From: Escherichia coli
GTDB lineage: Bacteria; Pseudomonadota; Gammaproteobacteria; Enterobacterales; Enterobacteriaceae
Length of the DNA stretch: 64,000 bases
NCBI RefSeq assembly: GCF_044324785.1
Contig: NZ_CP172127.1
Reading direction: 5' to 3' (one strand)
The translations under genes were made by a program, and so were the position numbers. Shown here piece after piece: positions 53,344 through 56,300 of the stretch; positions within the stretch are counted from its first letter, which is position 1, and each line of letters begins with the position of its first letter. The notes under the pieces were generated by a model, which made no database searches, had not been told where the DNA came from, and worked only from the letters and a program-made list of their open reading frames with translations.

Positions 53344-56300
53344 ATGCGGATTATTTTTCTACGCAGGGGGTATTTATCTTTACTCCCGTCAATGATTGCG
53401 TCTCTTTTCTCTACTAACGGTGTCGCGGCGGCCATTGATTTATGCCAGGGATATGATATCAAAGCGAGTTGTCACGCCAGCAGGCAAAGCCTTTCAAGCT
53501 TTACGCAGGACTGGAGCATCGCCGATGGGCAATGGCTGGTTTTTTCGGATATGACCAATAACGCCAGCGGTGGGGCCGTATTTTTGCAACAAGGAGCGGA
53601 GTTTTCTCTATCGCCAGAAAATGAAACTGGAATGACTCTGTTTGCCAATAATACTGTCTCAGGAGAATATAATAACGGCGGGGCAATATTTGCTAAAGAA
53701 AACTCAACGCTGAATCTTACTAATGTTATTTTTTCCGGTAACGTTGCAGGTGGCTATGGTGGCGCAATCTATTCTTCTGGTACTAACGATACCGGTGTCG
53801 TCGATTTAAGTGTCACTAACGCCGTGTTTCGCAATAACATCGCTAATGACGGCAAAGGTGGTGCAATTTATACCATCAACAATGACGTCTATTTAAGTGA
53901 AGTTATTTTTGATAACAACCAGGCATATACATCAACAAGTTACAGTGATGGCGATGGGGGCGCAATCGATGTCACCGATAATAATAGCGATATCACGCAT
54001 CCGTCAGGTTTCACAATAATAAATAACACCGCATTTACAAATAACACTGCCGAAGGTTATGGCGGGGCAATTTATACCAATAGCGTGACGGCTCCCTATC
54101 TTATTGATATTTCAGTTGATGACAGCTACAGCCAGAACAACGGTGTTTTAGTGGATGAGAACAATAGCGCAGCAGGCTATGGAGATGGTCCTTCCACTGC
54201 GGCGGGTGGCTTTATGTATCTCGGCTTAAGCGAAGTTACCTTTGATATTGCCGACGGAAAAACGCTGGTTATCGGCAATACAGAGAATGACGGAGCTGTT
54301 GACTCTATTGCTGGTACCGGGTTAATCACCAAAACAGGTTCCGGCGATCTGGTACTTAATGCAGATAACAATGACTTTACTGGCGAGATGCAGATTGAAA
54401 ACGGTGAAGTTACCCTGGGCCGCAGCAACTCCCTGATGAATGTCGGCGATACGCATTGCCAGGACGATACGCAAGACTGCTACGGTCTGACGATAGGGAG
54501 TATTGATCAGTATCAGAATCAGGCTGAGCTAAACGTTGGCTCGACCCAACAAACTTTTGTGCACGCATTGACGGGCTTTCAGAATGGCACTTTAAATATC
54601 GATGCTGGTGGCAACGTTACTGTTAATCAGGGCAGTTTTGCTGGCACCATCGAAGGTGCTGGGCAGCTCACCATTGCGCAAAACGGCAGCTACGTGCTGG
54701 CAGGGGCTCAGTCGATGGCGCTAACTGGCGATATAGTCGTTGATGATGGCGCGGTGCTTACGCTGGAAGGCGACGCGGCAGATCTTGCCGCTCTCCAGGA
54801 CGATCCGCAGTCGATCGTGTTAAACGGCGGCGTGCTTGATCTCTCTGATTTCGCCACCTGGCAGAGCGGCACATCATACAACGATGGCCTTGCAGTCAGC
54901 GGCAGCGGCGGTACGGTTATCGGCAGTCAGGATGTGGTGGATCTCGCAGGTGGCGACAATTTGCATATCGGCGGCGACGGGAAAGATGGCGTCTACGTGG
55001 TGATCGATGCGGGCGACGGGCTGGTTAGCCTGGCAAACAATAATAGTTACCTGGGCACCACGCAAATCGCTTCCGGTACGCTGGTGGTGAGCGACAACTC
55101 GCAGCTTGGCAATACCGACGAAAACCGTCAGCTCATCTTTACTGATAGCCAACAACAAAGTGAGATGGAAATTACCGCTGACGTTGATACTCGTTCAGAG
55201 GCAGCAGGTCACGGGCGTGATATTGAAATGCGCGCCGACGGTGAAGTGGCGGTTGATGCGGGGGTAGACACGCAGTGGGGCGCACTGATGGCTGACAGCA
55301 GCGGGCAGCATCTGGATGAGGGTAGCACATTGACTAAAACGGGAGCGGGTACGCTGGAAATGACCGCCAGTGGTACGACGCAGTCGGCGGTACGTGTCGA
55401 AGAAGGCACGCTGCAAGGCGATGTTGCGGATATCTTCCCTTATGCTTCGTCGCTGTGGGTCGGTGACGGGGCAACGTTCAAGACTGGCGCGGATCAGGAT
55501 ATTCAGTCAATTGATGTTACTTCCAGCGGCACTATCGACATCAGCGATGGTACGGTTTTGCGCCTGACCGGGCAGGATACTTCCGTCGCCCTTAATGCCT
55601 CACTGTTTAACGGCGATGGGACGCTGGTGAATGCCACCGATGGCGTGACGTTGACAGGCGAGCTTAATACCAACCTTGAAACTGACAGCCTGACTTATCT
55701 TTCCGACGTAACAGTTAATGGCAATCTGACCAATACGTCCGGTGCGGTCAGCCTGCAAAATGGCGTCGCTGGCGACACGCTGACGGTAAACGGTGATTAT
55801 ACCGGCGGTGGTACGCTACTGCTCGATAGCGAATTAAACGGCGATGACTCGGCAAGTGACCAACTGGTGTTGAACGGTAATACTGCTGGCAACACGACCG
55901 TGGTAATTAATCCCATTACGGGTATTGGTGAGCCGACATCTACAGGCATTAAAGTGGTTGATTTCGCAGCCGATCCAACGCAGTTTCAAAACAATGCGCA
56001 ATTCAGTCTGGCAGGCAGCGGCTACGTCAATATGGGAGCATATGACTACACGCTGGTGGAAGATAACAACGACTGGTATCTGCGATCGCAAGAAGTAACG
56101 CCACCATCGCCACCTGATCCCGATCCGACTCCCGATCCTGATCCCACGCCGGATCCTGATCCAACACCCGACCCGGCCCCGGACCCTACGCCTGCCTACC
56201 AGCCGGTGTTGAATGCCAAAGTTGGTGGATATTTTAATAACCTGCGGGCGGCAAATCAGGCGTTTGTGATGGAGCGACACGATCACGCTGGTGGCGATGG

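Follow-up and report, generated by a model that had tools for sequence, protein, structure and literature searches.

The window analyzed here is a 64,000-nucleotide stretch of Escherichia coli DNA (contig NZ_CP172127.1 of the RefSeq assembly GCF_044324785.1), and the subject of this analysis is a repetitive segment in one of its genes, yfaL (also known as ehaC), which encodes an autotransporter adhesin. In this gene, a genuine tandem repeat encodes an acidic, proline-rich segment (hereafter, the linker) that connects the autochaperone domain of the protein to its membrane-embedded part, and the length of the linker differs among E. coli strains by whole, in-frame units. The explanation we favor, and consider probable, is that the linker is an extended proline-rich spacer whose length changes by occasional slippage, with the differences in length presumably being close to neutral. 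The repeat thus appears as an ordinary feature of a surface-protein gene and does not reveal a new mechanism. The features of the window on which the argument relies are the following.

53344..57102, plus strand: yfaL/ehaC coding sequence, 1252 amino acids and a stop codon, AIDA-I-type autotransporter adhesin (NF007285 and annotation in relatives)
55723..56055, plus strand: autochaperone domain, C-terminal end of the passenger, residues 794-904 (Pfam PF18883, AC_1, E = 2.2e-18)
56089..56193, plus strand: whole proline-rich linker, Q916-P950, 35 amino acids, QEVTPPSPPDPDPTPDPDPTPDPDPTPDPAPDPTP (translation), flanked by the conserved motifs DWYLRS and AYQPVLNAK
56113-56130, 56131-56148 and 56149-56166, plus strand: three 18-bp units, each encoding PDPDPT (Tandem Repeats Finder, codon listing)
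56116..56161, no strand assigned: six GATC (Dam) sites within 46 bp, spaced by 6, 12, 6, 12 and 6 (site count)
56167..56190, plus strand: degenerate fourth unit, 24 bp, PDPAPDPT (codon-by-codon comparison with loci L002, which is K-12-like, and L017)
56215..56259, plus strand: predicted alpha-helix through the barrel pore, residues 958-972 (AlphaFold2/DSSP, fragment positions 158-172, pLDDT, the per-residue model confidence, 65-91)
56314..57033, plus strand: Autotransporter beta-barrel domain, residues 991-1230 (Pfam PF03797, E = 5.7e-34)

The repeat had been noticed previously by inspection of the sequence, and this original prediction described it as an imperfect 18-bp repeat in three to four copies at positions 56107-56192. 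The description of the repeat is borne out: Tandem Repeats Finder detects an array with an 18-bp period at positions 56111-56171 (3.4 copies, 79% matches, no indels, that is, insertions or deletions, score 73), with nested 12-bp and 6-bp periodicities, which is one of only two arrays with a score of at least 50 in the entire window. When the codons of the yfaL open reading frame (ORF) were shuffled, none of the 300 resulting sequences reached this score (the maximum was 69), so the tandem repetition is beyond chance. The location of the array was also correctly predicted, and only its ends were slightly off: position 56107 is the first base of the codon for S922, two codons before the first PDPDPT, and position 56192 falls one base short of the end of the codon for P950. 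The translation of the yfaL ORF across the array, ...DWYLRSQEVTPPSPPDPDPTPDPDPTPDPDPTPDPAPDPTPAYQPVLNAK..., includes exactly the peptide that was originally reported. The three complete units encode the same peptide, with DNA differences at third codon positions only, and the longest exact DNA repeat in the array is 11 bp (GATCCTGATCC, at an offset of 18). In the degenerate fourth unit, a 6-bp near-duplication (CCCGGC CCCGGA) makes the window allele two amino acids longer than the K-12 allele, which has PDPEPT in this place.

The composition of the linker DNA is distinct as well, with a GC content of 68%, compared to 52% across the yfaL ORF, and with the highest density of GATC sites in the window, namely six in 60 bp, whereas the window as a whole averages 4.5 per kb. 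The GATC cluster is a by-product of the encoding of Asp-Pro as GAT-CCN. An ORF on the opposite strand (55834..56286, minus strand, 150 amino acids), which starts with GTG and overlaps the repeat, is entirely contained in yfaL and lacks independent support and, because the host gene has a full-length equivalog match on the plus strand, we treat this antisense ORF as spurious.

The window gene is YfaL/EhaC, an AIDA-I-type, type Va autotransporter adhesin. Its match to the NCBIfam equivalog NF007285 reaches 2751.8 bits, where the cutoff is 1459, and extends over residues 1-1252 of the protein and positions 1-1250 of the model; the region that matches the linker is annotated as yfaL in 5,419 of the 5,426 complete E. 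coli genomes. In the closest match of the linker region (locus L001), the gene order is ypaB-yfaL-ubiG-gyrA, and an ORF of the window, 57243..58013 (minus strand), occupies the position of ubiG and is a candidate for this gene. The Pfam domains of YfaL follow in the order PATR, Chlam_PMP, AC_1, Autotransporter, with the pore helix predicted by AlphaFold2 fitting between AC_1 and the barrel; a match to TIGR01414 spans residues 807-1252, and the predicted strands of the barrel extend from about residue 988 to residues 1251-1252.

Structural comparison places the linker precisely. The autochaperone domain of YfaL can be aligned to its counterparts in AIDA-I (4MEE) and IcsA (3ML3, 5KE1). Residues 801-1252 were modeled with AlphaFold2 from 13 aligned sequences, a shallow alignment (mean pLDDT 73); in this model, the last autochaperone strand comprises residues 910-917, and residues 918-957 have no predicted secondary structure (pLDDT about 42-52). 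The best structural match of this model is the AIDA-I transport unit 4MEE (target TM-score 0.92, root mean square deviation 1.7 A), and the remaining top Foldseek matches are likewise barrels of autotransporters. In 4MEE, the beta1/autochaperone part is the counterpart of residues 808-916, and the helix and barrel are the counterpart of residues 960-1247, whereas the intervening residues 917-959, about 43 in number, face only about 12 residues of AIDA-I. Thus, the placement of the repeat between passenger and translocator in the original prediction was right and can be refined on the strength of the Pfam matches, the structure alignment and the AlphaFold2 model: the linker follows the autochaperone domain and precedes the pore helix. 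In type Va autotransporters, the segment between these two elements sits at the extracellular mouth of the barrel and, given this position, the YfaL linker would be located just outside the barrel mouth. As for the protein as a whole, an adhesion/biofilm phenotype has been reported for yfaL of K-12 (Roux et al. 2005, as cited in PMC13101318 and PMC9110714), and the supplements of PMC6389913 list low expression values for the gene under laboratory conditions.

It had been suggested that the length of the linker could differ between strains, and the tabulation of repeat number across strains bears this out. We searched all complete RefSeq genomes of E. coli three times with the roughly 500 bp that surround the linker and pooled about 157 rows, taken at even ranking steps from the 5,419 matching genomes, with a few genomes recurring between samples; the match span gives the net indel, and a single strain with a large deletion, last in every listing, was left out of the pooled rows. 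Counted as the residues between DWYLRS and AYQ, the linker falls into the following length classes.

33 amino acids: 105 of 157 rows, 67%; K-12, BL21, O157:H7
27 amino acids: 31 of 157 rows, 20%; IAI1, O111, O121
35 amino acids: 11 of 157 rows, 7%; the class of this window
25 amino acids: 7 of 157 rows, 4.5%
41 amino acids: 1 of 157 rows, less than 1%
29 amino acids: 1 of 157 rows, less than 1%
30 amino acids: 1 of 157 rows, less than 1%

An additional allele, with a linker of 21 amino acids, was seen only in the protein database, so that the range across E. coli alleles is 21-41 amino acids. Seven genomes lack the linker region, and only one lacks any match to yfaL; one of the roughly 5,419 matches comes from a record that is classed as a plasmid.

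In draft assemblies from short reads, breaks at the linker are very frequent (window positions of about 56090-56200; loci L021-L025 and proteins P0011, P0012, P0014 and P0023-P0076). More than 60 clusters of partial YfaL sequences labeled as Shigella sonnei end at differing points within the PD/PT repeat, and large clusters, of 303, 519 and 304 members, begin just after it, with three contigs beginning at an identical base. The S. sonnei allele of the linker shows D-to-N changes (PPNPNPT). Insertion of an insertion sequence (IS) element as the cause of the contig breaks in S. sonnei is unsupported, given that one scaffold spans the linker with a gap of 250 N, roughly normal in size, and that the ends of the upstream contigs are variable; coverage dropout or a failure of assembly fits the pattern better than IS insertion. 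Because of these breaks, copy number should be taken from complete or long-read genomes only.

A codon-by-codon comparison of 20 fetched alleles indicates how the length classes differ. The 29-residue allele of strain TK3887 is the 35-residue allele of the type found in CRE78, strain 605 and the window minus exactly one 18-bp unit, and the endpoints of this deletion fall inside the same 11-bp direct repeat, GATCCTGATCC. Strain 1105, with 41 residues, carries three copies of CCCGACCCAACC in perfect tandem (a 32-bp self-match at an offset of 12), and its nearest relatives, 4/0 and MS14385, both with 33 residues, have a single copy, implying that 1105 gained two 12-bp PDPT units. The 21-residue allele is the 27-residue allele minus one PDPDPT, and TUM14759 has lost 9 bp (SPP) between CCACC repeats. 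Two larger deletions, both rare, in frame and with one endpoint in the linker, are comparable to each other: in VTB97022v (L007, NZ_CP178670.1), a deletion of 168 bp joins a DPT of the autochaperone domain to a PDPT of the linker and removes 56 residues, including half of the linker, from a gene that is annotated as intact, and in the protein P0008, DYT is joined directly to PAYQ, the entire linker being gone. In addition, the last unit of the linker varies by residue (PDPEPT, PDPDPT, PDPGPT, PDPAPDPT, PDPAPAPT, PDPIP).

Altogether, at least 8 distinct indel events are discernible within the roughly 100 bp of the linker, compared to none in 510 bp of flanking sequence, a comparative count over 19 sequences as opposed to a measured rate. 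The sizes seen are +6, -9, -12, -18, -24, +24, -36 and -168 bp, every one a multiple of 3, and all 20 fetched alleles read through in frame. Alleles that are otherwise nearly identical differ cleanly by 18 bp, by 2 x 12 bp or by 6 bp. More than one linker length occurs on each of three flank backgrounds (35/33/25, 41/33/33 and 33/33/29/25), and therefore, length changes either recur or move by recombination. We attempted to count independent events from a tree of the flanks, but this count is compromised by recombination.

The original prediction held that the repeat is prone to slippage, with the 18-bp unit as the step of copy-number change. Both claims hold with qualifications. On the evolutionary scale, proneness to slippage is compatible with the clean gains and losses of units between alleles, and a change of 18 bp is indeed among those seen, along with changes of 6, 9, 12 and 24 bp. 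As a claim of hypermutability, however, it fails. The length classes follow the class of sequence identity, which reflects lineage, the repeat is imperfect, and one length is found in about two thirds of the genomes; hence the locus is not hypermutable. Furthermore, 1,916 genomes share at least 99% identity with the K-12 allele across 495 bp, a level at which an indel of even 6 bp is excluded, and the linker is identical among laboratory derivatives of K-12. The yfaL mutations that are described in the supplements of one laboratory evolution study (PMC6389913) are Tyr195Phe and one synonymous single-nucleotide variant, and another (PMC7536353) describes other point or frameshift changes; all of these lie away from the linker. 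Mutations of yfaL are also mentioned, without detail, in PMC10581211. The possibility that linker indels arise in laboratory evolution is accordingly rejected, so far as the detailed mutations in the first two sources go.

Taken together, these observations point to a probable scenario in which an extended spacer changes in length by occasional slippage. The acidic segment of PD and PT dipeptides would connect the autochaperone domain with the alpha-helix by which the outer-membrane barrel is plugged and would probably be a stalk or tether, extended and non-globular, that keeps the passenger off the outer-membrane surface. If the segment adopts a polyproline-II conformation, with about 3.1 A per residue, its length would range from roughly 6.5 nm for 21 residues to 12.7 nm for 41. 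At the DNA level, the codon blocks of 6, 12 and 18 bp are reiterated such that replication slippage, or deletion between short direct repeats, could add or remove whole blocks, and the resulting in-frame length alleles would be inherited stably and spread with lineages as well as by recombination. Comparison with more distant proteins fits the spacer function. Among homologues that are 28-38% identical, the equivalent site is occupied by linkers of 8-99 amino acids with other repeat units: P0075 (31% identical to YfaL) contains PDP[DE]PT seven to eight times, a Citrobacter homologue contains a 12-residue unit, VTPVDPDDGGSD, six times, and P0101 and P0107 have 8-11 non-repetitive residues without a proline repeat. 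The breadth of this range indicates that length at the linker site is tolerated.

Several considerations weigh against this interpretation. The census of lengths is a sample of about 157 rows rather than a full count, and the low AlphaFold2 confidence is weak evidence for disorder because of the shallow alignment of 13 sequences. Identical DNA encoding the 25-residue linker is present in two flank backgrounds, which implies the involvement of recombination and prevents a clean count of independent events. The PDPDPT peptide is retained despite synonymous divergence of the DNA, so the motif is constrained, and sequence, not length alone, may matter. The gene as a whole has been reported to evolve under positive selection (PMC9110714), and variation in length may be non-neutral. 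Finally, experiments on the function of the YfaL linker are absent from the literature searched.

The signal of positive selection bears most directly on an alternative that we regard as unlikely, namely, that the linker is a surface-exposed epitope, immunodominant or exposed to phages, whose variation is maintained by diversifying selection, that is, antigenic variation in the manner proposed for the R1 and R2 repeats of pertactin. In the aforementioned study of 92 wastewater E. coli genomes, as well as in an earlier one, yfaL was among the top genes under positive selection (PMC9110714), the gene is unusually divergent, and the last unit of the linker varies in its residues; moreover, alleles of pertactin do differ in the number of proline-rich repeats (PMC8931430). 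The positive-selection analysis deals, however, with substitutions rather than indels, and its signal is not tied to the linker. The predominance of the 33-residue class, the association of the length classes with lineage and the conservation of the core PDPDPT units as a peptide all run counter to diversifying selection on the linker, as does the poor expression of yfaL in laboratory conditions according to the supplements of PMC6389913; no immunological data were found in the literature searched.

The divergence of yfaL deserves separate comment. Among the complete RefSeq genomes, the best match to the window gene is 98.1% identical across the gene, and most are 80-95% identical, which is unusual divergence for a gene that is nearly universal in E. 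coli. As no identity exceeds 98.1%, the window allele is absent among the 5,426 complete genomes. When only the 501 bp around the linker are considered, identity reaches 99.4%, in the dog isolate 18KM2445.

A functional elaboration of the spacer, which we rate as quite unlikely, would have its length tuned in each lineage to the thickness of the surface layer (lipopolysaccharide core, O-antigen, capsule), so as to expose or mask the passenger. In that case, slippage-prone coding would be a means of adjusting adhesin exposure slowly. In a weaker version, by analogy to the pertactin repeats, the linker itself would be a site of antigenic variation.

Even less probable, in our estimation, is that the linker performs a specific job beyond spacing, either in secretion, for instance by preventing the hairpin segment from folding during export of the passenger, or as a motif that binds a host or bacterial partner. 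The segment is immediately N-terminal to the pore helix, and in models of type Va secretion, the region by this helix enters the barrel first. The retention of the peptide motif through synonymous DNA divergence and the presence of similar PDPxPT repeats at the equivalent site of P0075, at only 31% identity, would also be in line with such a role. Yet, P0101, P0107 and AIDA-I manage with 8-11 and about 12 residues, respectively, the former two without any proline repeat, the E. coli alleles themselves range from 21 to 41 residues, and the yfaL gene of VTB97022v is annotated as intact despite the loss of 56 residues, half of the linker included. No known binding domain was matched, and the weak match to internalin K (InlK, E = 0.0012) is compositional.

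The remaining alternative, that the repeat is a contingency locus at which slippage frameshifts switch yfaL on and off, would seem natural for a tandem repeat within the coding region of a surface adhesin, the more so as Ag43, another E. coli autotransporter, is phase variable, albeit by a different mechanism (PMC3764049), but it has almost nothing to recommend it here: the units are imperfect multiples of 3 bp with a longest exact repeat of 11 bp, so that no long perfect tract exists, all length differences preserve the frame, and the sole frameshifted variant seen, P0077, is shifted upstream of the repeat; with in-frame changes throughout, there is no on/off switch, and phase variation is effectively refuted. 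P0077 itself (25 member sequences, E. coli) is a truncated YfaL with a frameshift just before the linker (…DWYLRFARSNAAIAT*), in which the shifted frame meets a TGA created within the GAT-CCT repeat codons.

The spacer that changes by occasional slippage thus remains the explanation we favor, and its implications are of modest practical value. Where passenger and translocator meet, natural alleles of this core E. coli autotransporter accommodate 21-41 residues, and members of the wider family 8-99, which could be useful where YfaL serves as an anchor for surface display (PMC13101318). Linker length could also be varied experimentally in order to probe the distance at which the adhesin projects from the outer membrane. 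In the searchable literature, we found neither a description of length polymorphism in the yfaL linker nor a link between yfaL and tandem repeats or typing; the polymorphism would be a fresh instance of a known phenomenon, in-frame variation of a proline-rich repeat in an autotransporter.

Apart from the yfaL repeat, the only array in the window with a score of at least 50 is located at positions 37991-38044 (a 24-bp unit, 2.2 copies), in an ORF of 319 amino acids (37859..38818, minus strand), and encodes 25 residues near the C-terminus of its product. We take this ORF to be, probably, an RpnB/YfaD-like gene that adjoins rhmA.

Several known systems put the YfaL linker in perspective. Of these, AIDA-I (4MEE), together with type Va autotransporters in general, shares with YfaL the order of modules, that is, autochaperone/beta1, connecting segment, pore helix and beta-barrel. 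The connecting segment of AIDA-I, however, consists of about 12 residues without a PD/PT repeat, as opposed to the approximately 43 residues (917-959) of YfaL, and the PD/PT repeat is an expansion confined to YfaL and certain other members of the family.

Proline-rich spacers of the cell envelope are comparable in a more general sense. The (EP)n(KP)n rod of TonB is one such spacer, and the wall-spanning regions of Gram-positive surface proteins and the stalk of P1 of Streptococcus mutans are others in which, as in the YfaL linker, proline alternates with charged or polar residues. All these segments are expected to assume an extended, polyproline-II-like shape and are believed to reach through a layer or to project across it; the weak compositional match of YfaL to internalin K and the discussion in PMC8931430 are in line with this comparison. 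The likeness is one of composition and presumed physics only, without homology.

At the DNA level, the yfaL repeat resembles the variable-number tandem repeat loci that are employed in multilocus variable-number tandem repeat analysis, being a short, in-frame, coding tandem repeat with a copy number that varies among strains. It differs from these loci in that it is imperfect, has few alleles, one of them at about 67%, and is linked to lineage rather than fast-evolving, and would, therefore, discriminate poorly between strains.

The closest parallel is pertactin of Bordetella, with its R1 (GGxxP) and R2 (PQP) repeats: in both proteins, proline-rich peptides are repeated in tandem in the passenger of a beta-helical autotransporter. 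The pertactin repeats consist of other motifs and belong to a cleaved passenger, in which they form loops or segments inside the beta-helix or at its end, whereas the YfaL repeat follows the autochaperone domain and directly precedes the pore helix. Unlike in the case of pertactin, we know of no link between YfaL and immunity or vaccination. The similarity is, then, an analogy of kind as opposed to homology of the repeats, but it extends to the mode of variation: in pertactin as in YfaL, alleles differ by whole in-frame units, and the variation is slow, at the level of alleles rather than within an infection.

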